Source of the DNA: Eubacteriales bacterium
GTDB taxonomy: Bacteria; Bacillota; Clostridia; Oscillospirales; CAG-272
Length of the DNA: 64,000 bases
Direction: 5' to 3'
Assembly (NCBI GenBank): GCA_045652835.1
Contig: JAZOLE010000129.1
Span: forward strand, 933-64,932
Below the pieces are notes generated by a model. The model was not told the origin of the DNA. It searched no databases and worked only from the letters and a program-made list of their open reading frames with translations. Positions 3,432 to 55,981 of this stretch are shown here, piece after piece; position 1 is the first letter of the stretch, and the number at the start of each line of letters is the position of its first letter. Made by a program: the position numbers and the translations under genes.

Positions 3432-4550
3432 TCAGTCCAAAAATCCCTTGAGATGGCGTGCGCGGCTGGGGTGACGCAGCTTACGCAGTGCCTTTGCTTC
3501 GATCTGACGGATACGCTCTCTGGTGATTTCAAACTCCTGACCAACCTCTTCCAGCGTTCTGGTTCTGCCGTCATACAGACCGAAACGCAGCTTGATAACG
3601 TGCTCTTCTCTGGGAGTCAGGGTGTGCAGCTCGCGCTCGATGACCTCACGCAGAATGGTAGCGGATGCAGCCTCGGAGGGAGCGGGGGTATCCTCATCGG
3701 GAATAAAGTCGCCAAGGTGGCTGTCTTCCTCTTCACCGATAGGAGTTTCCAGCGAAACGGGGTCCTGCGCGATCTTGAGGATCTCGCGTACCTTGTCCGC
3801 GCTCATACCCATCTTCTCACCGATCTCCTCGGCAGTTGCTTCTCTACCAAGCTCCTGCAGCATTTGTCTGGAGTATCTGGACACCTTATGGATGGTCTCT
3901 ACCATGTGTACGGGAATACGAATGGTTCTTGCCTGATCTGCAATGGCACGGGTGATCGCCTGTCTGATCCACCAGGTTGCATAGGTCGAGAACTTGTAGC
4001 CCTTGGTATAGTCGAACTTGTCAACTGCCTTCATCAGACCCAGGTTACCCTCCTGAATCAGGTCAAGGAAGAACATACCTCTGCCTACGTATCTCTTTGC
4101 AATGCTGACTACCAGACGCAGGTTGGCTTCCACCAGCTCCATCTTGGCATCCTCATCGCCTGCTGCCATTCTCTCGGCAAGCTCGCGCTCCTTGTCTGCG
4201 GTCAGCAGCGGTACGCGGCCGATCTCCTTGAGATACAGACGCACGGGGTCGTCAATGGCAAGACCCTCTTGACCGAGCAGTCTTTCCATATTCTCACCGT
4301 CGCTGTAACGCTCTACTTCACTCTCGATCTCATCCATCTCGGCAGAAGAAATCTCATCGCCAAGCGGAATGCCGCTATCCTCCAATGCCTCATACAGCTT
4401 GTCTATACTGTCAAGGTCGTAATCCATTTCCTCCAGTGCATCGTCAAGATCCTCCGCGGAGAGATCGCCCTTCTTTCCCTTGGCGACCAGTTCCTCCATG
4501 GTGATCTTCTTTTCCTCGTGTTCACCGGTTACGATTTTGGTCTCATTCAT
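3432..4550 (-). CDS. rpoD: RNA polymerase primary sigma factor
   Basis: Sigma-70 regions 2-4 are present ([34 protein letters not shown]). It follows dnaG. ATG at 4550 (MNETK) is preferred over the RBS-less GTG at 4571. Confidence 0.93.
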
Positions 4551-4591: not shown

Positions 4592-6364
4592 TTATATTTT
4601 TTTCTTCTTTGCGTCAAGCAGCTGCTGAATAGACGCGACAGCGTCACCGGAATCCCGTGCGTCGCTCTTTTGCTTTTGCTCCTTGAGCGTTTGCACACTG
4701 GCGCGCAGCACAGCCGTGCCGTTTTCAGCCAGGGCGCGACGTCTTTGCAGCATGCTTTGCAGCCTACCCATCTCGTCGGGAGAGAAAACCTCACCCAAAA
4801 GCGAGTAGTTAAAGCCGCCCTCACTACGCTCCATTTGCATAATGCTTGCATAGGCGCGCTTACCAAGTCCCGAGAAAAAGTCCTCCTCGCCAAGCGCGAT
4901 TGCGCCCGAGGTGATCTGCTTACGGTGCTCGGGATACAGCATCAAAAGTCCGAGAATGGCTTCCTCTGCCGCCACCGCCTGCACGTTTTTGGCAGTATCG
5001 GGATTGACGCGGTCACCATAGCCTCTTGCCGAAAGGCTTGCTTCCTGCACCTGCTTTTGCTTGGCTGCGCGCAGCTTTTTGTTACGCGTGCGCTCCACGT
5101 CATTTTTCAGGCTCTCTGCGCTGATGCGCAGCTTGTCCGCTACGGTGGAGGCATAGATCTCACGCTCAACCTTGGAGGGCGAGAGCGCGATCAGTGCGCA
5201 CAGCTCCTCGGAGGCTTTAATGCGCTCCTCGGGAATATCCATGCTGTATTTGGCAAATATCTTTTCGGATTTATACGAAAACTCGGTGCGGCTGCCCTCC
5301 ACCAATCGGCGGAAGCGCGCGTCTCCGAATTTGCGCAGATACTCATCGGGGTCCTTTGCGTCATTGACGTGCAGCACGCGCACGTCCATACCAACCTGTC
5401 CAAGCACCTCCATCGCCTTGACAGCGGCACGCTGTCCCGCCTCGTCGGCGTCATAGCAAATGACGACCTGCTTGGTATATTTGGTCATCAGCCTTGCCTG
5501 CTCGGGGGTAATTGCAGTGCCCAGCGTAGCCACTGCATTTTCAAAGCCGTAGGCATGCAGCGAAATGACGTCCATATAGCCCTCGCAAAGGATCAATCTC
5601 TCTGCAGAGTGATTCTTTGCAAAATTGAGTGCAAACAGATTCTTGCGTTTTTGGAACGCAGGGGTATCGGATGAGTTGAGATACTTGGGCTTGGAGTCAT
5701 CCATCACGCGACCGCCAAAGGCGATGACGTTGCCTGCAGTATCGATAATGGGAAACATCACGCGATTGCGGAAATAGTCATAGGCTCTGCCGTTTTTCTG
5801 GCTGATGCCGCACAGAAAGCCTTGCGACAGCTCCTGATCGGTGTATCCCTTTTTGTGCATATAATCGGTCAGCATATTGAACGATCCCGGTGCAAAGCCA
5901 AGACCGAAATGCTTGATCAGTGCCATGCTCAGCCCACGCTTCTCTGTCAGATAGCGCAAGCCCTCTGCTCCGATGGGGTCAAGCAGACACTTGTGAAAAA
6001 ACTTGGCGGCTTCCCTGTTCATATCGTGCACGCGTGCGCGCGTCAGCCCACCCGCATTGTTCTTTTCTTTCTCATGCACAATGCGAATGCCTGCGCGGTT
6101 TGCAAGCACCTCAACCGCCGAGGGGTAATCCAGATTATCGTTTTTCATCACAAACGTGATGGCGTCGCCACCCGCGCCGCAGCCAAAGCAGTAAAAGCTT
6201 TCGCTATCGGGGAACACGGTAAACGACGGTGTTTTTTCGCTGTGGAAGGGGCAAAGACCGCCGAAGTTGGAGCCGGCACGCTTAAGCGTTACGTAGCTGC
6301 CGATCAGCTCCACAATATCCGTGCGGTGGCGTACCTCCTCCACGACTTCTCTTGGTATGCTCAT
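4592..6364 (-). CDS. dnaG: DNA primase
   Basis: Zn-finger CPFHSEKTPSF and Toprim segment EGYMDV...YDADEAG. Position upstream of rpoD fits the classic operon. Confidence 0.93.
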   Translation of the reverse strand: MSIPREVVEEVRHRTDIVELIGSYVTLKRAGSNFGGLCPFHSEKTPSFTVFPDSESFYCFGCGAGGDAITFVMKNDNLDYPSAVEVLANRAGIRIVHEKEKNNAGGLTRARVHDMNREAAKFFHKCLLDPIGAEGLRYLTEKRGLSMALIKHFGLGFAPGSFNMLTDYMHKKGYTDQELSQGFLCGISQKNGRAYDYFRNRVMFPIIDTAGNVIAFGGRVMDDSKPKYLNSSDTPAFQKRKNLFALNFAKNHSAERLILCEGYMDVISLHAYGFENAVATLGTAITPEQARLMTKYTKQVVICYDADEAGQRAAVKAMEVLGQVGMDVRVLHVNDAKDPDEYLRKFGDARFRRLVEGSRTEFSYKSEKIFAKYSMDIPEERIKASEELCALIALSPSKVEREIYASTVADKLRISAESLKNDVERTRNKKLRAAKQKQVQEASLSARGYGDRVNPDTAKNVQAVAAEEAILGLLMLYPEHRKQITSGAIALGEEDFFSGLGKRAYASIMQMERSEGGFNYSLLGEVFSPDEMGRLQSMLQRRRALAENGTAVLRASVQTLKEQKQKSDARDSGDAVASIQQLLDAKKKKI

Positions 6365-7393: not shown

Positions 7394-7540
7394 GGTAAAA
7401 CCTCACTTTCCTTTGCAATACTTCGTTCAATATATAATATACGCACAAATTTGCGATTTTCCTTTTTTTCTTGCGAAATTTTTATAAACTTTTGCAAAAA
7501 ACATATGGAAGCCCCCCCCCACCCGGACACCCTCATGACG

Positions 7541-7692
7541 AAAAGTTTTGGTCGAGCTTTTCCAAAAGCCCGCGGGGTCTTGGGGCAGCGCCCCGAGTCG
7601 CCGCTGCAGCGGCGAAACCCCTACTCGCCGTTTAAATTCGCGAAGCGAATGAATGGTTCATTTTTTGCGGCTACTCCGTCAAAAAGAACGGA
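7541..7692 (+). repeat. family-A four-hairpin intergenic repeat, copy A1
   Basis: AAAAGTTTT lead. hp1 7556-7569, hp2 7579-7597, hp3 7598-7615, hp4 7656-7689. Confidence 0.85.
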
Positions 7693-7733
7693 GAGAGTCT
7701 TCTCAATGTGATGCGTCTTAAACCCATTACCCA

Positions 7734-7877
7734 CTTTTTTCTTTGACACCGCTGGCGCAAAGAAAAAAGTTCACAAAAAAGAAACGCCGAGAAGTTTCGC
7801 CCTCTGCGGAGGGCGACTTGGGGCGCTGCCCCAAGAGCCCCGGTCGCTTTTTGCAAAAAGCGACGCAAAAACTCTCG
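7734..7877 (-). repeat. family-A repeat, copy A2 (inverted, tail-to-tail with A1)
   Basis: hp4 7734-7769, hp3 7797-7816, hp2 7817-7835, hp1 7845-7862. Confidence 0.85.
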
Positions 7878-7905
7878 TGAGTGGGTTGTCCGTGGGGGGA
7901 GAAAA

Positions 7906-7937
7906 ATCGGAGGGTGACCGCACGGTCACCCTCCGAT
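7906..7937. terminator. bidirectional terminator downstream of yigZ
   Basis: TCGGAGGGTGACC-gcac-GGTCACCCTCCGA stem flanked by an A-run and a T-run. Confidence 0.75.
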
Positions 7938-7944
7938 TTTTCGG

Positions 7945-11407: not shown

Positions 11408-11480
11408 TGATTTTTCAAAATTTTTGAAACTATTTTTGGGAAATGCGAAACCTTTTTGCAAAAAAACCGACTATATTTTT
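11408..11480 (+). promoter_or_regulatory. copy M3 of a shared upstream module (T/A tracts + TTTTTGCAAAAAAA + CTATAT)
   Basis: Partial match to the modules at 36525 and 40753. Ends about 30 nt before ATG at 11506. Confidence 0.4.
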
Positions 11481-11983: not shown

Positions 11984-12010
11984 GATACCCGATCGGGTAT
12001 CCCCTTTTGG
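11984..12010 (+). terminator. terminator-like palindrome after the membrane-protein gene
   Basis: Perfect palindrome GATACCCGATCGGGTATC followed by CCCTTTTGGGG. Confidence 0.5.
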
Positions 12011-12042
12011 GGTGACGTGGTTTACGTTGAGGTAATTCGCTC

Positions 12043-12190
12043 CGTTCTTTTTGGCACCGCGGGCGCAAAGAAGAACGTATTTGCTGCGCAAATCAAACGC
12101 CGAGATATTTCGCTCGTTGCGACGAGCGAGGAGGGCTGCGCGCCCTCCACTGCGCCGCCTTTTGAAAAAGGCGGGCGAAAACTTTTCATC
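12043..12190 (-). repeat. family-A repeat, copy A3 (starts 5 nt after the sigE stop)
   Basis: hp4 12043-12077, hp3 12110-12129, hp2 12130-12148, hp1 12155-12174. Confidence 0.85.
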
Positions 12191-12194
12191 AGAT

Positions 12195-22493: not shown

Positions 22494-22517
22494 GTAGGGG
22501 CGATGCACGAATCGCCC
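22494..22517 (+). repeat. GTAG-headed REP-like hairpin
   Basis: GTAG-GGGCGAT-gcacga-ATCGCCC. Confidence 0.6.
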
Positions 22518-22557
22518 GCAAACAACCGTTGGGGTTTTATGTGTGGAAACCGTTTCC

Positions 22558-22693
22558 GTTCTTTTTGAGCAAGGAGCTGCAAAAAGAACCAAAAACAGCG
22601 TAAAGAGTGTTTCGCGCTTTGCGAAGCGCGACTTGGGACGCTGTCCCAAGACCCTGCGCCCTTTTTGAAAAAAGGGCGATCAAAAACTTTCAT
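22558..22693 (-). repeat. family-A repeat, copy A4
   Basis: hp4 22558-22589, hp3 22612-22631, hp2 22632-22650, hp1 22658-22677. Confidence 0.85.
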
Positions 22694-22741
22694 CAATCAA
22701 GTCCAAGCCGCGCGCCTCTCGCAAAAATTGCCCAAAAGCAC

Positions 22742-25094: not shown

Positions 25095-25224
25095 CGGATG
25101 ACTGATCAAGCAGGATGCGCGCTGCAAAGGCGTCCCCGTAGGGGAAGAGGACCCGCAGCGAGTGGAGCGCGGCGGAATGAGCGACCACGGGAAAAGGGGC
25201 CGTGGATTGAATTTGGGACAGTAT
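25095..25224 (+). repeat. family-B repeat, left inverted copy
   Basis: The core 25117-25224 is about 93% identical by eye to the reverse complement of 25697-25804. Confidence 0.85.
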
Positions 25225-25696: not shown

Positions 25697-25826
25697 ATAC
25701 TGTCCCAACATCATCACACGGCCCCTTTTCCCGCGGTCGCTCATTCCGCCGTGCTCCACTCGCTGCGGGTCCTCTTCCCCTACGGGGACGCCTTTGCAGC
25801 GCGCGTCCGCTTCGGTTGCTCATCCT
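25697..25826 (-). repeat. family-B repeat, right inverted copy
   Basis: Inverted partner of 25095-25224. Confidence 0.85.
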
Positions 25827-35956: not shown

Positions 35957-36140
35957 CTCCGAGCGTCATCCTGAGCGAGTGCTGCGAAGCAGCCGAGTCG
36001 AAGTTTTGCGGAATGGAGTTGCAACGCAACGGAATGAAGCAAAACCGCAAGCCATGATACCGGGGACTGTCCCCTGTGTCGTGTCCGCAGGACATGATAC
36101 AGCGGGACTGTCCACCGTGTCGTGGCGTAGCGGGATCTGC
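35957..36140 (+). repeat. family-C repeat, left arm
   Basis: Inverted partner of 36253-36452. Includes a 52-nt block identical in both arms (GGGGACTGTCCCCTGTGTCGTGTCCGCAGGACATGATACAGCGGGACTGTCC). Confidence 0.85.
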
Positions 36141-36182
36141 GATGGATTTTCTCAATGTCTGCTTAGCCTTGGTTACATTTTT

Positions 36183-36213
36183 GTAGCGGACAGTCGAGGA
36201 CGCCTGTCCCTAC
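36183..36213. repeat. REP-like palindrome with GTAG/CTAC at both ends (centre of the family-C palindrome)
   Basis: GTAGCGGACAG-tcgaggacgc-CTGTCCCTAC. Confidence 0.6.
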
Positions 36214-36252
36214 AAGATGTTGTTTGTGCAGGCGGCGTGTCATAAAACGTCA

Positions 36253-36452
36253 GGAGATCCCGCATCAGCGCAACACAGGGGACAGTCCCGCTGTATCATG
36301 TCCTGCGGACACGACACAGGGGACAGTCCCCGAGTGTCGCGCCTCGCGCTTTTGCTCCACTCCGTTGCGTTGCAACTCCATTCCGCAAAAGTTCGACTCC
36401 GTCATTTCGCAACTCGTTGCGAAATTCCTCCGCTCAGGATGACACTCGAGGG
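36253..36452 (-). repeat. family-C repeat, right arm
   Basis: The reverse complement aligns to 35957-36140. One internal hairpin is replaced by a different hairpin. Confidence 0.85.
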
Positions 36453-36524
36453 AAGGTACCGTCTAAAACGACACCTTGGTGTCCCTTGACACCCCGCGAA
36501 AAATATGATAAAATGAAATTACTA

Positions 36525-36590
36525 AAATATTTTCAACTTTTTTCAAAAAAACGTACACATTTGCATCAAAAATGCGTCTATATAGGTAGA
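36525..36590 (+). promoter_or_regulatory. copy M1 of the shared upstream module
   Basis: ..CAACTTTTTTCAAAAA..TTTGCATCAAAAATGCGTCTATATAGGT. Ends 33 nt before ATG at 36623. Confidence 0.45.
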
Positions 36591-40740: not shown

Positions 40741-40752
40741 TCTTCCCTTTTC

Positions 40753-40820
40753 TCAAATTTTTTAACTTTTTTTCAAAAATAGCAGAACTTTTTGCAAAAA
40801 AATGCGTCTATATAGGTGAG
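40753..40820 (+). promoter_or_regulatory. copy M2 of the shared upstream module
   Basis: About 80% identical by eye to 36525-36590. A 20-nt core AAAAATGCGTCTATATAGGT is identical. Confidence 0.45.
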
Positions 40821-51029: not shown

Positions 51030-52268
51030 TTACCACTGATCGCTCTCGTCCTCGGGAATGACCTCTTTGACGGCAGCAATGGCGCACTCGATCATGCTGT
51101 CGTCCGGCTCAAGCACGGTAATGTGCTGCAGCCAAACGCCGGGCAGCGAGATCAGGCGGGTGATGATGGTATCATATCTGCCTGCGAGCTTGAGCAGCTC
51201 GTAGCCAATGCCCATAACCAAGGGCAGCAATACTAAGGATATGCCGGTACGTACCAGAGTGGGAAGCACGCTATGAATGGGGGTGAGCACGTTTTTCATG
51301 GTGTCGCCGAAAATAGCAACAAAGGTCGGCTCAATAAAGAACGAAACAAACACGTTGACAAGCACCATCAAGATCAGGAAAGAGGTGCCGCAGCGAGGAT
51401 GGAATCTTTTCTGCTTGCGCACGTTCTCAACGGTCAGGGGCAGTCCTGCCTCGTAACAGAAGATGGTCTTGTGCTCTGCACCGTGATACTGGAAGGTGCG
51501 GCGGATCTCCTTCATCAGCGAAACCGCAGCCATGTAGCCGACTACAATGACGATCTTGAGCAGACCCTCGATCAAAGAACGGATAAACGATTCAAGTGCC
51601 ACGTCCTCGGGTTTCAGCGAGGGCACGAGTCCGACCAGCAGATCATACAGCGCGGTGGGCACAAACTTGAACAGCAAAATGGCAAGACCCAAGCCAAGCA
51701 CAACACCCAGCACCATGACAAGCGTGGTAGTCAGCGACGCGCTGTCAGCCTTTTTCTCTTTCTTTTCGGGAGCGGTGGGTGTGGGAGATTCGGTTTCACG
51801 GGCGGATATAGAATCCGCCCCTACAGGCACCTCGGTTACGGGCGCTTCGGTTTCGCAGACGGATATAGACTCCGCCTCTACGGATTCGGTATCAACGGCG
51901 GATATAGACTCCACCGCTACGGGCTCGCCCTTCTTTGCAGCCTTCTTTGCTGCCTTGGCAGCCTTTTTGGCTTCTTTTTCGCGGCGCATCTCCTCCTCTG
52001 CCTCTTCAAGACCCGAAATCTCGGCAGAGCGCATCAGGCACTTATATCCCTGAATCATGGACATAGCAAAGTTATACACACCACGTACCACGGGAATCTT
52101 GGTGATCACAGGCGTTTTGGTGCTGTTGGCAGAAACCTCCAGCACGATCTCCCCATCGGGATTGCGTACCGCCATGGCGGTCTTTTTAGGACCTCGCATC
52201 ATAATGCCTTCCATCAGCGCCTGACCGCCGATAGAAGTCTTTTTGCAAGGACATTTATCTTTTTTCAT
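51030..52268 (-). CDS. DUF1385-family membrane protein with a ~100-aa low-complexity insert
   Basis: IGGQALMEGIMMRGP N-terminus and HGAEHK motif. Insert reads EEAEEEMRREKEAKKAAKAAKK...VGADSISARETES. Confidence 0.75.
   Translation of the reverse strand: MKKDKCPCKKTSIGGQALMEGIMMRGPKKTAMAVRNPDGEIVLEVSANSTKTPVITKIPVVRGVYNFAMSMIQGYKCLMRSAEISGLEEAEEEMRREKEAKKAAKAAKKAAKKGEPVAVESISAVDTESVEAESISVCETEAPVTEVPVGADSISARETESPTPTAPEKKEKKADSASLTTTLVMVLGVVLGLGLAILLFKFVPTALYDLLVGLVPSLKPEDVALESFIRSLIEGLLKIVIVVGYMAAVSLMKEIRRTFQYHGAEHKTIFCYEAGLPLTVENVRKQKRFHPRCGTSFLILMVLVNVFVSFFIEPTFVAIFGDTMKNVLTPIHSVLPTLVRTGISLVLLPLVMGIGYELLKLAGRYDTIITRLISLPGVWLQHITVLEPDDSMIECAIAAVKEVIPEDESDQW
51790..51925 (-). repeat. three tandem ~39-bp REP-like units lying in frame inside the DUF1385 CDS
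   Basis: Intact unit at 51800-51824 = reverse complement of GTAG-GGGCGGAT-tctat-ATCCGCCC. Eroded units at 51855-51881 and 51896-51920. Confidence 0.75.
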
Positions 52269-52838: not shown

Positions 52839-53324
52839 ATGAGCAGATCGGTCATGGGGGCACTGCCCGCACGCACACACAGGACAACGGGCAAGAGCGA
52901 GGAAACAGGCGGCTTTGTGCCTGGGTTGATTATGGGGCTATGCCTTTGCGCGGCTGTGGCGGTGCTCTCTCTTTTGATTGGCGCACTGATTGCATATAAA
53001 AGCAGCGATCCTGATGCGCTGATCGCACCGCTGGGGTTTGGCGCGTTGGTACTTGCCGCGCTTGCGGGTGGATTGGGCGTGGGGCTGCGCTGCAATGCGG
53101 CAATGCTTCCCTGCGCGCTGCTCTGCGGCTGCATTTTCGTGGGCGTGGGGCTGTTTGCAAGCTTGTTTTTCGGTGCAGACGCGCGCCAAGCGCTCACGCT
53201 TGGCCTAGGGCTTGGAGCAAGCCTTGGTATTCGCGCAGGCGTCGTGGCAATCATGTGCGCCTCTGCCGCCTTGACAGCACAAATCAAAAGCAAGCTGCAG
53301 GCAAGACCGCGAAGGAGATCATGA
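52839..53324 (+). CDS. 4-TM membrane protein, unknown function
   Basis: GGAGG RBS, 161 aa, Gly/Ala/Leu-rich helices. Confidence 0.6.
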   Translation: MSRSVMGALPARTHRTTGKSEETGGFVPGLIMGLCLCAAVAVLSLLIGALIAYKSSDPDALIAPLGFGALVLAALAGGLGVGLRCNAAMLPCALLCGCIFVGVGLFASLFFGADARQALTLGLGLGASLGIRAGVVAIMCASAALTAQIKSKLQARPRRRS

Positions 53325-53356
53325 TCAACCGCCACCACACAAACACCTCACTCATA

Positions 53357-53483
53357 AAAGGTTTTGGTCGAGCTTTTTCAAAAGGTCGCGAGTCAAGGGC
53401 GGCGCCCTTGTCGCCTCCGCAGAGGCGAAACATTTTTTCGGCGTTTTTGGTTCTTTTTGCGCCAGCGGTGTCAAAAAGAACGG
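53357..53483 (+). repeat. family-A repeat, copy A5
   Basis: hp1 ~53372-53386, hp2 53394-53410, hp3 53411-53428, hp4 53450-53481. Confidence 0.85.
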
Positions 53484-53574
53484 AAAGAACCTCCTCACAT
53501 AATATCCCATCGGACACGATTTTGCCTTTACTCAAATATTCGCCCGACTTTTTAATCAACCACCCAAGTAAAGC

Positions 53575-53607
53575 AAAAGGACTGCGTCACGCGACGCAGT
53601 CCTTTTG
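53575..53607. terminator. bidirectional terminator
   Basis: GGACTGCGTC-acgc-GACGCAGTCC with AAAA and TTTT flanks. Confidence 0.8.
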
Positions 53608-53611
53608 TAAT

Positions 53612-54436
53612 TTAATCAATGATCGGTTCTTCAACATCGGGAACTGCCGTTTCCTCGCTCGCCGTGGTGGTCGAGGAATCGCGGTTGATCACGAACTCGA
53701 ATAGCTGTTCAGTATACTCATACTCCTCGGGATCACCTTGCATGTTGGCATAGCAGGTCACGTTGTAGCTACCTGCATCCAGCTCATACGTGGGTATCAC
53801 GATATCACAGTAGCTAAGATATGCCGTACCGTCAATCGTGATTTCTTGGTGCTGTCTGTTTATAAAGCTTTCATCCCAGATAATCTCTCCGCCATTGATG
53901 GAATAGCCTAAAAGCACGTCCTTCTCGGGGCAGCGCCAGCATCCGCGCACGATCAGCTCGGAAATACTGCCGTCCACGTCGGCTTGGTAATTCCACGTGT
54001 CCTCTTCGCCTGGCTCATAGAAGCAGTTGATCACCTCTTGTCCGTTCAGTACTGCGACAAGGCAGTAGATACTGAATTTCTTTTCAGGAAAAGGCTCTCT
54101 TGGCTCGTCCAAATCACACGAGCCGCAATCACAACCGGTCTCCTCCCCCGTTGTATAAGGTCCCGTATACCCCTCGGTCCCGATCTCGTAAGGCGGCGTG
54201 GTCTCGATCTCGTAAGGCGGCGTGGTCTCGATCTCTACGGGCGGCATAGGCTCAATATCAATGAGAATATCGGTTTCAATCGGGATGTATTCATCCGTGG
54301 GATAGACGTGTTCGCCCACCGTAGCGTCCTTGATGTCTCCAAACAACTCGGCAACCAAACCGTTACCAAGGTCACAGGAGGTAAAGACAGTCACGCAAAG
54401 TGCGGTCAAGAGTAAAATCGAAATCGTTTTTTTCAT
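53612..54436 (-). CDS. lipoprotein paralogue 1 of 3
   Basis: MKKTISILLLTALCVTVFTSC lipobox. GGAGG RBS. C-terminal GYSINGG... domain. Confidence 0.75.
   Translation of the reverse strand: MKKTISILLLTALCVTVFTSCDLGNGLVAELFGDIKDATVGEHVYPTDEYIPIETDILIDIEPMPPVEIETTPPYEIETTPPYEIGTEGYTGPYTTGEETGCDCGSCDLDEPREPFPEKKFSIYCLVAVLNGQEVINCFYEPGEEDTWNYQADVDGSISELIVRGCWRCPEKDVLLGYSINGGEIIWDESFINRQHQEITIDGTAYLSYCDIVIPTYELDAGSYNVTCYANMQGDPEEYEYTEQLFEFVINRDSSTTTASEETAVPDVEEPIID
54181..54236 (-). repeat. 24-bp tandem repeat (~2.3 units) inside lipoprotein 1, encoding (E)IETTPPYEIETTPPYEI
   Basis: CTCGATCTCGTAAGGCGGCGTGGT is repeated directly. Confidence 0.7.
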
Positions 54437-54476
54437 GATAGTTTCCTCCTTAAATCATTTCATATTTGATCTTTCG

Positions 54477-55238
54477 TCAATCCATGATCGGCTGCGCGAT
54501 CTCCAAATTGAAAATACAAACCTGATCCTCCACGTTGGTAGCAAGCAGAGCCTCGTTGTTGTAATTTGCATACCATACCGTGATCTCATAGCTGCCTGCG
54601 GGCAGGTCTGCCAAGGGAATGTAAACCTGATATTCGCTTACGTAATCAGCGCCCTGATTAAAAAGCTGCTCCTTAATCTCGGGATCGGGATCTCTTTGAT
54701 AGGCGTCCGTGTAGTACGGAGTTCCGCCGTTGATGGAATATCCGAATCTTGCATAATGTGCATTTGTCAAGCCAAGGATACCGCTGACGATCAACGATTC
54801 ACAGCCCTGCTCGACAGTCACGTCATTCGGGTCAACCCACTGGTGATTATAGTTGGTAAATAAGGATTCCGTAAATATTTCACAGCCCGAGATATACTCA
54901 CAATCGACCTGATATACAACACTATACATGATCTGCGTCAGAGGCACGGTGGGCTCGATGATCACATCCTCGCTCCAATACTCCTCCACCGTGTACTCCT
55001 CGGTCGTTTCCGGCATGGGCGGTGCGGTTTCAATTTCAACCGTGCCCCAAGGCTCGATTGGATCGATCGCAACGTTTGCAGATTCATATACGTCTGCAGG
55101 CGGTTCGACATAGCCGTAATCATACTCATCCCGAATATCCCCAAACAACTCGGCAACCAGTCCGTTGCCAAGGTCACAGGAGGTAAAGACAGTCACGCAA
55201 AGTGCGGTCAAGAGTAAAATAGTAATCGTTTTTTTCAT
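54477..55238 (-). CDS. lipoprotein paralogue 2 of 3
   Basis: MKKTITILLLTALCVTVFTSC. The 5' ~100 nt are nearly identical to paralogue 1. Confidence 0.75.
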   Translation of the reverse strand: MKKTITILLLTALCVTVFTSCDLGNGLVAELFGDIRDEYDYGYVEPPADVYESANVAIDPIEPWGTVEIETAPPMPETTEEYTVEEYWSEDVIIEPTVPLTQIMYSVVYQVDCEYISGCEIFTESLFTNYNHQWVDPNDVTVEQGCESLIVSGILGLTNAHYARFGYSINGGTPYYTDAYQRDPDPEIKEQLFNQGADYVSEYQVYIPLADLPAGSYEITVWYANYNNEALLATNVEDQVCIFNLEIAQPIMD

Positions 55239-55273
55239 AGTTTTTGCCTCCTATCAATGTATCGTTTGCATAA

Positions 55274-55939
55274 TCAGCCGCACGCTGTATCATCATTGTA
55301 CGGATCTCTGTTCAATCGAAACGTAAAATACTCTCTTTGCACAAGATAATCCGATTCTGCGCCAATTGGATGACCTTCATACCAAACCGTGATCTGGTGT
55401 GTATTCGTAATATCACCCACCGGCACAAGGATGCTGAATGCGCTGACGTAGTCAGCTCCATCTTTGTACAAGCTATCCTTAAGTAATGCCTCGGGATCTT
55501 GCTGAAAGGTGGATGAGAAAACCGGCTCTCCACCATCGATGGAATATCCGAATATGACATAATCGGCTTTTGCAAGACCGATCCAGCCGTTGATCACCAG
55601 TTCTTGCACGGCACCATCTATCCTGATAGTCGAAACGGCCTCGGGAATATTGGCGTGCAATTCTTCGTAATGTCGGAGTTGGCCACCTTGATTGTATCCC
55701 TCTACCGTGGTGATTATAAAATCGGTCAGCCAAGGCGTTTTCACTTCGATCGGTGCGGTTTGATCAACCCAAGGCTCGGGCGGTGTTTGTATGATATGAT
55801 CCACAGACGGCTCGACAAGCACGTCCTCTTCGCCCAGTTCCTCCAACAACTCGGCAACCAAACCGTTGCCGACACTACAGGAGGTAAAGACGGTGATACA
55901 AACTGCGGTCAAGAGTAAAATTGTGATCGTTTTTTTCAT
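55274..55939 (-). CDS. lipoprotein paralogue 3 of 3
   Basis: MKKTITILLLTAVCITVFTSC. GYSIDGG... domain. Confidence 0.75.
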   Translation of the reverse strand: MKKTITILLLTAVCITVFTSCSVGNGLVAELLEELGEEDVLVEPSVDHIIQTPPEPWVDQTAPIEVKTPWLTDFIITTVEGYNQGGQLRHYEELHANIPEAVSTIRIDGAVQELVINGWIGLAKADYVIFGYSIDGGEPVFSSTFQQDPEALLKDSLYKDGADYVSAFSILVPVGDITNTHQITVWYEGHPIGAESDYLVQREYFTFRLNRDPYNDDTACG

Positions 55940-55981
55940 GGTTTTTGCCTCCTTTTCGTTTGATAAATATTATGATTTTAT

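Follow-up and report, generated by a model that had tools for sequence, protein, structure and literature searches.

Family A, a structured intergenic repeat of uncultured gut Clostridia, is probably a mosaic extragenic element co-transcribed at the 3′ ends of genes

In Escherichia coli and other enterobacteria, REP units, each a single palindrome of ~35 nt with a GTAG head, are found in BIMEs, which are extragenic, highly repeated mosaics of a few hairpin types that alternate in orientation, are joined by defined linkers, and lie at the 3′ ends of genes or between convergent genes. BIMEs are co-transcribed with the upstream gene and are reported to stabilise the upstream mRNA, to attenuate transcription, and to lower translation when near a stop codon; an effect of E. 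coli REPs near stop codons on termination-proximal translation is also reported. Another set of modular intergenic repeats, including BOX of Streptococcus pneumoniae, bcr1 of the Bacillus cereus group, ERIC and Correia, occurs in Firmicutes and other bacteria and is 100-300 nt in length, with variable internal modules and stable predicted RNA folds and without a transposase of its own. Compensatory changes are reported for bcr1, BOX-type repeats affect the expression of neighbouring genes, and bcr1 and Correia elements are associated with TTTAT or TA duplications. Here we describe family A, a repeat with arms of ~160 nt, five copies of which (A1 to A5) lie in a 64,000-nt stretch of DNA from an uncultured Eubacteriales bacterium (contig JAZOLE010000129.1, positions 933 to 64,932; hereafter the window). 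Family A is probably a clade-specific mosaic extragenic element of the REP/BIME, REPIN and BOX kind that is co-transcribed as a module of the 3′ untranslated region (UTR).

Family A shares with REP/BIME its extragenic and highly repeated nature, its location, and its construction as a mosaic of a few hairpin types. The likeness is one of organisation and not of membership, because family A units are not REPs: an arm is ~160 nt in length, contains 4-7 hairpins and a linker-apex pairing, has no GTAG head, and resides in an uncultured lineage of Clostridia rather than in enterobacteria. A short GTAG-headed palindrome of ~20-40 nt is found in the same genomes as a separate family, GTAGGGGCG-loop-CGCC (for example GTAGGGGCGGATTCTATATCCGCC), hereafter the GTAG-REP. 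As in REPIN-RAYT systems, the inverted doublet predominates (42 convergent pairs) and the clade has a RAYT-like Y1 gene; unlike those systems, the pairs are heterotypic and tail to tail, often have a central terminator-like hairpin, were not seen to flank an enzyme gene and, in the ~1.4 Mb searched, are accompanied by no Y1/HUH gene that carries family A. The IS200/IS605-derived PATE elements also have structured ends and an asymmetric core on one strand, and a single case of duplication-free insertion beside a short conserved motif is PATE-like, but the end hairpins of family A are dissimilar, its ends are ragged, and the searches revealed neither TnpA nor TnpB genes that have family A ends. 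The IS-matching terminal inverted repeats and target duplication of MITEs are absent, the duplication being judged on one clean comparison. The multi-hairpin, intergenic and covariation-supported character of family A is shared with Rfam RNA motifs of gut Clostridia, none of which it matches: Rfam 15 gave no match in the window at gathering thresholds, and a search of four element-bearing stretches with E-values up to 10 gave only chance-level scores (≤22 bits), so that a known RNA family is rejected for the short and the long form in both modes. Literature searches found no description of family A. The initial annotation, made from the letters of the window, could name no described family that matched, and this agrees with our results; we regard family A as undescribed and as no member of REP/BIME and probably none of BOX, with the BOX-type repeats, including bcr1, compared by description only and differing from family A in its own module set, its rule of alpha/beta tail pairing, its central terminator and, at one site, its lack of a duplication.

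The five copies are where the initial annotation had placed them, and on the same strands. Two independent motif patterns, based on the hairpins hp4 and hp3, each match exactly these sites, with 0.00 and 0.16 matches expected in shuffled sequence. A covariance model built from 79 copies (model R1), run over the window with filters off, gives five full-length matches of ~100-160 bits, and all other matches, reverse strands included, score ≤22 bits. Mean column identity in a five-way alignment of the window copies is 69%, with conserved blocks. Minimum free energy (MFE) folding recovers hp1, hp2, hp3 and hp4 in all five copies; in A1 and A3 a fifth, optional hairpin folds between the linker and hp4. 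The earlier description of a four-hairpin repeat of ~130-150 bp is thus right as to hp1 to hp4; the extent was too short, by ~10 nt at the 5′ end and ~20-30 nt at the 3′ end, and the optional modules had been overlooked.

An arm consists of a leader, the lead AAAGTTTT, hp1, hp2, hp3, a linker, the optional hairpin, hp4 and a tail. The leader is CA-rich, (A)ACCGCCACCACACGGACGACCCACTCATG, with 0-3 iterated units, and is often truncated or repeated in ~42-nt units that restart with ATGAAAGTTTT; in most full-length copies its consensus CACCACACGGAC is preceded by CCGC. The tail is conserved for ~29 nt past GAACGGA and takes an alpha form (TTTTCTCACATAAnATCCCAACGG), a beta form (CTCAATGTAAAA) or a rarer gamma form. 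A long form is ~100 nt longer and lacks the 3′ arm of hp1 and the 5′ arm of hp2, which are replaced by a segment with three further hairpins (GGTGGCGTGTGAATG..CATTCGAGTG..GACGCCACC; GATGCTGAATTTCTGCGAAATTCAGCATC). Long-form copies are found at L014 ~4235-4500 (-), L031 5681-5970 (-) and ~20 other loci (surveyed loci carry L numbers), and none is in the window. The iterated leader units, the fifth hairpin and the 100-nt insert of the long form are optional modules, which makes family A a mosaic. Separately, tail modules (..AAAAAGAACGG..CTCACATAA) are doubled around inserted REPIN-like doublets or in direct tandem (L009 ~5628-5835, L070 ~640-804, L001 and L052 ~2037-2090), which hints at a copy-and-restart process at the 3′ end of the element.

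The family was surveyed with the exact hp4 pattern in one genome per species, which yielded at least 99 stretches (662 kb); the counts of copies, pairs, contexts and terminators given below are among the matches listed in those 99 loci, ~165 by model R1 and 170 by a hidden Markov model (HMM). Bar three chance matches, the listed loci come from 15 species-level metagenome-assembled genomes (MAGs), labelled Eubacteriales, Clostridia or Oscillospiraceae bacterium and obtained from yak, sheep and cattle guts. Weaker relatives (50-65 bits) are found in three metagenome contigs from other gut lineages, whose YigZ is only ~47% identical to that of the window. These share the AAGTTTT lead, hp1, hp2 with its GGCAGAGCC apex, and hp3 ending in GCGAAAC, and their stems are new and compensated. 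In a metagenome scan for nearer relatives the closest YigZ was 62% identical, and an exact-protein look-up for closer relatives returned no match. A plasmid of a cultured member of the Oscillospiraceae, Anaerotruncus colihominis (NZ_CP094683.1, 26725-27145; L100 1400-1820), carries related repeats, with an identical 34-nt lead and hp1 (AAAAGTTTT and the hp1 module) followed by different GC-rich hairpins, and with two more hp1-like units in reverse orientation (GCCTTTTTGAAAAAAGG..AAAAAACTTT); these modules suggest a wider superfamily. Phage records and viral contigs contain no family A match, and the sole plasmid match, that of A. colihominis, covers hp1 only, which argues against a phage or plasmid origin.

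That pairing rather than sequence is conserved, as had been proposed from the five copies, is borne out by covariation among 79 distinct copies. RNAalifold predicts 29 pairs, 17 of them with changes on both sides. In a specified 35-pair structure, 94.6% of cells are paired, as compared with 83.6% when partners are shuffled (0 of 500 shuffles reach 94.6%) and ~51% when partners are slid by 1-3 columns, and double changes occur at 19 of the 35 pairs, the linker-apex helix included; the compensatory changes first noticed by eye are thus real. Every hairpin exists as a few discrete compensated alleles that are freely recombined among copies. The linker-apex helix (helix 4, 95.3% paired) joins S1, a four-base linker segment upstream of hp4, to the complementary S2 in the 5′ part of the hp4 apex, and its haplotypes are GCTG/CAGC (42 copies), GGCG/CGCC (21), GCCG/CGGC (5) and GGTG/CACC (1), with single mismatches in 6. 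Because S2 is also able to pair within the apex, the S1-S2 interaction would be a pseudoknot or an alternative pairing. A fifth helix within the tail is unsupported. An extension of hp4 by five pairs between a U run and purines is compatible with the data and hardly varies; two of its pairs are invariant G·U pairs and one toggles between A-U and G·U, and it would be possible on the forward strand only.

Other measures also distinguish the two strands. Of the 79 copies, 56 fold more stably on the forward strand than on the complement, the mean gain being 1.7 kcal/mol, and the MFE structures of the 79 copies contain 364 G·U pairs on the forward strand versus 217 on the reverse. In a 129-copy model-based alignment, stem cells hold 136 G·U versus 62 A·C combinations, and 38 distinct stem alleles include G·U versus 16 with A·C. 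These asymmetries tend to suggest selection on the forward single strand, in the simplest case as the sense transcript, and a specific DNA strand is also compatible. This fold bears on the proposition that the copies are neutral palindromic debris, that is, terminator-like hairpins duplicated by slippage or recombination and folded without selection. Their location in convergent intergenic "safe havens" and the many degenerate and truncated copies would fit such an origin, which is nonetheless very improbable given the compensated double substitutions at 19 pairs, the discrete alleles kept in 15 species, the architecture conserved in distant lineages, the favoured forward strand, and the strict pairing of alpha and beta tails described below.

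The forward reading frames of the element are mostly stop-free, with an ATG in the lead, which would fit a small protein. Core lengths modulo 3 are evenly spread (34/25/19), the forward frames are all about equally open, and indels do not come in threes, so there is no conserved frame and protein coding is ruled out. An integron attC-like site for cassette recombination has also to be considered, since attC sites follow open reading frames (ORFs) in the sense orientation and conserve structure over sequence. Family A differs from attC in having several hairpins rather than one bulged hairpin, in the GTTC...GAAC of hp4, the reverse of the RYYYAAC...GTTRRRY order, and in its neighbours, which are housekeeping genes (the rpoD operon, the SigE-like gene) and not cassettes. 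A small protein or an attC-like site is the least credible of the explanations weighed here.

Copies of family A are commonly arranged in inverted pairs. Among the 170 HMM matches, adjacent copies are convergent (tail to tail) in 42 instances, divergent in 1 and tandem in 2, and the arrangement of A1 and A2 is thus the usual form of the family, a feature not recognised in the initial annotation. Tails are combined as alpha with beta in 27 pairs, gamma with beta in 10 and alpha with alpha in 1, and beta with beta is not found (0). Since a pair almost always has exactly one beta arm, the asymmetric core ACAT has the same orientation in both arms on a given strand. The leaders of a pair point outward and adjoin the 3′ ends of the flanking genes, commonly within ~30-45 nt of a co-oriented stop codon. 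Many pairs have in common a central hairpin, AAGGGAGTTACC-loop-GGTAACTCCCTT, with an A run on its 5′ side and a T run on its 3′ side, which scored as a terminator and from its sequence would be a bidirectional, intrinsic one; elsewhere the two tails overlap or are separated by a GTAG-type REP. No hairpin of the arms precedes a T run, and the arms are rejected as intrinsic terminators, only the central hairpin qualifying. At L019 the composite occupies the entire gap between the stop codons of two convergent genes. The distant contig L148 contains three pairs, which shows the pair arrangement to be old.

Arms have a preferred polarity relative to genes. The gene on the 5′ side of an arm is co-oriented with it in 59 instances and opposed in 20. 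Among the 42 single arms that are full-length and not at contig ends, tandem gene contexts comprise 14 co-oriented and 4 antisense arms, 16 arms are in convergent contexts and 7 in divergent ones. Of the 16 arms in convergent contexts, 14 have the 5′ end as the one near the co-oriented stop codon, at 3-41 nt, and 50 arms in all begin ≤45 nt past a co-oriented stop codon, with a mode of ~17-24 nt. A sense terminator-like site is found within 150 nt downstream, with none upstream, for 24 single and 30 paired arms, and upstream only for 8 single and 8 paired arms. The stop codons of adjacent genes are TAA in 35 of 50 cases versus 338 of 492 in the background, and from this equal usage the stop codon is not part of the element. 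No sigma-70-like promoter was found inside the elements.

From these positions we infer that the arms would be transcribed as 3′ UTRs and would act in RNA, and the forward-strand asymmetry together with the post-stop position makes us lean towards a constraint at the RNA level. Each arm would be transcribed as the 3′ UTR of its upstream gene and fold in the RNA, which could be why selection keeps pairing rather than sequence. The composite of two arms would provide one or two convergent genes with a folded, nuclease-resistant 3′ end and a terminator. Possible roles in RNA include protection from 3′ exonucleases, the definition of 3′ ends or insulation between convergent genes, and an influence on termination-proximal translation. 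Copies may be spread and reshuffled by recombination, by gene conversion among copies, or by some enzyme, which would explain why the same discrete alleles are found in all species and yet differ at orthologous sites. A bolder form of this proposal is doubtful: the arms would be a pseudoknotted RNA domain with a dedicated factor, and the alpha-arm/terminator/beta-arm unit a self-propagating "3′-end cassette" that places two 3′ UTRs and their common bidirectional terminator between convergent genes and on which gut Oscillospirales throughout the clade rely for the formation and stability of transcript 3′ ends, with the rule of one beta arm reflecting strand-specific cutting or copying.

Several observations weigh against co-transcription as a 3′-UTR module of a mobile mosaic. 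The excess of G·U is only ~2:1, and part of it comes from a few abundant alleles. Genes for the context figures were called with a simple codon model, which missed at least 2 genes beside elements. In a crude scan, 13 of 47 single arms and 13 of 61 paired arms have a sense terminator ≤~110 nt upstream, and such arms would be transcribed by read-through only. The polarity of single arms could be inherited from a former pair geometry and not selected. Neither a transposase, nor the usual terminal inverted repeat, nor a target-site duplication was found, the last with one clean comparison, and the case for mobility is consequently indirect.

The same contexts bear on a further explanation, that family A is a host cis-acting RNA domain of the 3′ UTR, either a platform for a protein or a pseudoknotted element for stability or termination, which is inherited vertically, homogenised by gene conversion and not mobile. 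The unpaired motifs conserved in distant lineages (AAAGTTTT, the GGCAG(A/C)GCC apex, the CGCAG loops and GCGAAAC) would be expected of such a domain, as would a tertiary or alternative structure of the kind suggested by the linker-apex covariation, arms in the sense orientation after stop codons and before terminators, and copies that persist at orthologous sites across species. It accommodates poorly the very high copy number beside unrelated housekeeping genes, the truncated, iterated and nested forms, the arms in divergent promoter regions or downstream of terminators, antisense arms such as A1 and A4, and the presence/absence and single-versus-pair differences between close species, and we hold it to be improbable.

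Turnover of the copies is evident at orthologous sites. Where flanks are 75-86% identical between species, copies have different alleles in every hairpin or differ in tail type, truncation or REP insertion; the arms differ at the A3 site among the window, L010 and L041, and at the A1/A2 site among the window, L041 and L068. Between species there are also single-versus-pair and filled-versus-empty differences, and in most comparisons of orthologous sites the copy has been replaced, truncated or rearranged instead of being cleanly present or absent. In the sole clean filled/empty case (L031 versus L091), a long-form arm lies between CCGC and TRYATAAACC, with no duplication. The leader and the tail are not inverted copies of each other.

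Searches for a mobilising enzyme yielded a gene associated with the other repeat family. No transposase lies between or beside the arms in ~660 kb of flanking sequence, and widely spaced arms enclose ordinary small genes (HTH, AbrB-like, lipoprotein) and no enzyme gene. A tblastn search for Y1 proteins in ~1.4 Mb of sequence, with IS200 TnpA and E. coli RAYT queries, identified a RAYT-like Y1/HUH ORF at L007 317-880 (related MAG JAZRQR010000146.1; E 1.8e-9) that has an NHVHLL motif and scores 18.1 bits against Pfam Y1_Tnp, below the cut-off of 23, and a fragment at L096 5885-6211. The L007 ORF holds two inverted GTAG-REPs in its own reading frame (450-478 and 673-703; GTAGGGGCGATCAGTGATCGCC) and no family A. 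The initial annotation had pointed to RAYT genes as a possible source of mobility; the association of the L007 gene with the GTAG-REP leaves that suggestion unsupported, and no family A hairpin has a GTAG head. GTAG-REP units often abut alpha tails at other loci, and the window contains three tandem units at 51787-51924, inside a predicted minus-strand ORF (51030-52268), and one at the tail of A4.

The main rival, although unlikely, is transposition at the DNA level, in which family A would be a non-autonomous, single-strand DNA transposon of REPIN- or PATE-like type, with a trans-acting HUH/Y1 enzyme or other recombinase that reads the shape of the DNA hairpin, which would account for the covariation of the stems. 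The forward-strand bias would then be that of the strand cut and transferred. Inverted doublets as the main form would recall REPINs, the constant ACAT orientation imposed by one beta arm per pair is as for sites cut on one strand, and the duplication-free insertion beside CCGC in the one filled/empty case, the CCGC before most full leaders, the quick turnover of content at orthologous sites and the presence of a RAYT-like Y1 gene in the clade all accord with it. That gene, however, carries the GTAG-REP and not family A, there is no conserved GTAG-type head on family A hairpins, and hp1 is unlike hp4, whereas IS200/IS605 elements have similar left and right ends. Moreover, the 5′ leaders are ragged and iterated and not precise ends, no enzyme gene accompanies the arms in the flanks searched, and the architecture is kept where YigZ is only ~47% identical, which fits a host-level constraint. 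The class of structured intergenic repeat first proposed for family A is supported, and the two forms then offered, a structured RNA or a mobilised DNA hairpin, are both compatible with the data, which lean towards the RNA.

Within the window, the genes around the copies are as first named, with Pfam and NCBIfam matches to a dGTPase-dnaG-rpoD operon, YigZ and a SigE-like sigma factor. A1 (7534..7713, +; R1 121.5 bits, with support from its fold and sequence) and A2 (7716..7882, -; R1 99.5 bits, aligned with L041 and L068) lie tail to tail, as had been described, with the yigZ terminator on one side and the promoter region of the dGTPase gene on the other. A1, the right-hand partner, has a beta-type tail (CTCAATGTGA), the optional fifth hairpin at 7636-7650 (+), and complementary S1 (GCCG, linker, 7627..7630, +) and S2 (CGGC, apical part of hp4, 7668..7671, +) segments. 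A2 has a degenerate hp4 (CTTTTTTCTTTG...CAAAGAAAAAAG) and a gamma-like tail (CAAAGAAAAAAGTGGGTAATGGG), typed by comparison with L079. It has the orientation of yigZ and is positioned after a putative intrinsic terminator of that gene read from the sequence (7898..7939, -; GGAGGGTGACCGTGCGGTCACCCTCC, with A and T runs on either side), which is immediately upstream of the A2 leader; the same arrangement is found in L041.

The remaining copies are single arms. A3 (12020..12193, -; R1 112.7 bits) has a beta-type tail (CTCAACGTAAA) and a fifth hairpin, and starts in the sense orientation a few nt past the stop codon of the SigE-like gene (TAA 12197-12195; NCBIfam SigE), as the initial annotation had stated. 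A terminator-like hairpin follows just downstream of its tail (11984..12001, -), so that the order on the minus strand is SigE-like gene, A3, terminator-like hairpin. A4 (22535..22697, -; R1 159.6 bits) has an alpha-type tail (CACACATAAAACCCCAACGG) and occupies a divergent region between genes identified by Pfam as an acyltransferase gene (-) and a Cys/Met pyridoxal phosphate enzyme gene (+); the REP-like unit GTAGGGGCGATGCACGAATCGCC of the separate repeat family (22494..22516, +) abuts its tail. Neither A1 nor A4, both antisense arms, is in a sense 3′ UTR. A5 (53350..53504, +; R1 153 bits, with an orthologous copy in L040) has an alpha-type tail (CTCACATAATATCCCATCGG), and its leader AACCGCCACCACACAAAC begins directly past the stop codon of a plus-strand ORF (52839-53324). 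A bidirectional terminator-like hairpin (AAAAGGACTGCGTCACGCGACGCAGTCCTTTT; 53575..53610, without assigned strand), again read from the letters, lies between convergent genes, ~70 nt past the A5 tail, and A5 is thus bracketed by a stop codon on its 5′ side and a bidirectional hairpin on its 3′ side.

Other repeats are present in the window. A large inverted repeat unrelated to family A (25096-25224 / 25697-25825) has 129-nt arms of 88% complementarity, separated by 472 nt, and nested inverted repeats at 35983-36411 have arms of 78 and 83 nt that are 90% and 81% complementary. A 118-nt segment occurs in three direct copies (54333-54450, 55135-55252 and 55836-55953; 90% and 81% identity, ~700-800 nt spacing) within adjacent minus-strand genes (53612-54436, 54477-55238 and 55274-55939) that have no Pfam or NCBIfam matches and are probably tandem paralogues. 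A recurrent AT-rich motif, (A)ACTTTTTGCAAAAAA(A), precedes genes at four places (7467-7501, 11412-11466, 36519-36587 and 40748-40817), in some cases with TGCGTCTATATAGGT after it, and is probably a shared promoter or UP-element architecture outside family A.

Family A is a candidate for a new entry in Rfam or in a repeat library, and in MAG assemblies it causes contig breaks and can serve as a useful lineage marker. Its discrete compensated hairpin alleles amount to a natural mutagenesis series for structure-function work, and concrete leads to an enzyme or a binding factor are offered by the one-beta-arm rule and by the linker-apex pairing. If the reading of family A as a mosaic element co-transcribed at 3′ ends is true, it would be a second, independent case, beyond enterobacterial REP/BIME and pneumococcal BOX, of repeats that shape mRNA 3′ ends, stability and termination, and a single reusable structured module would make up a large share of the 3′ ends of genes in uncultured ruminant-gut Clostridia, a widespread group.

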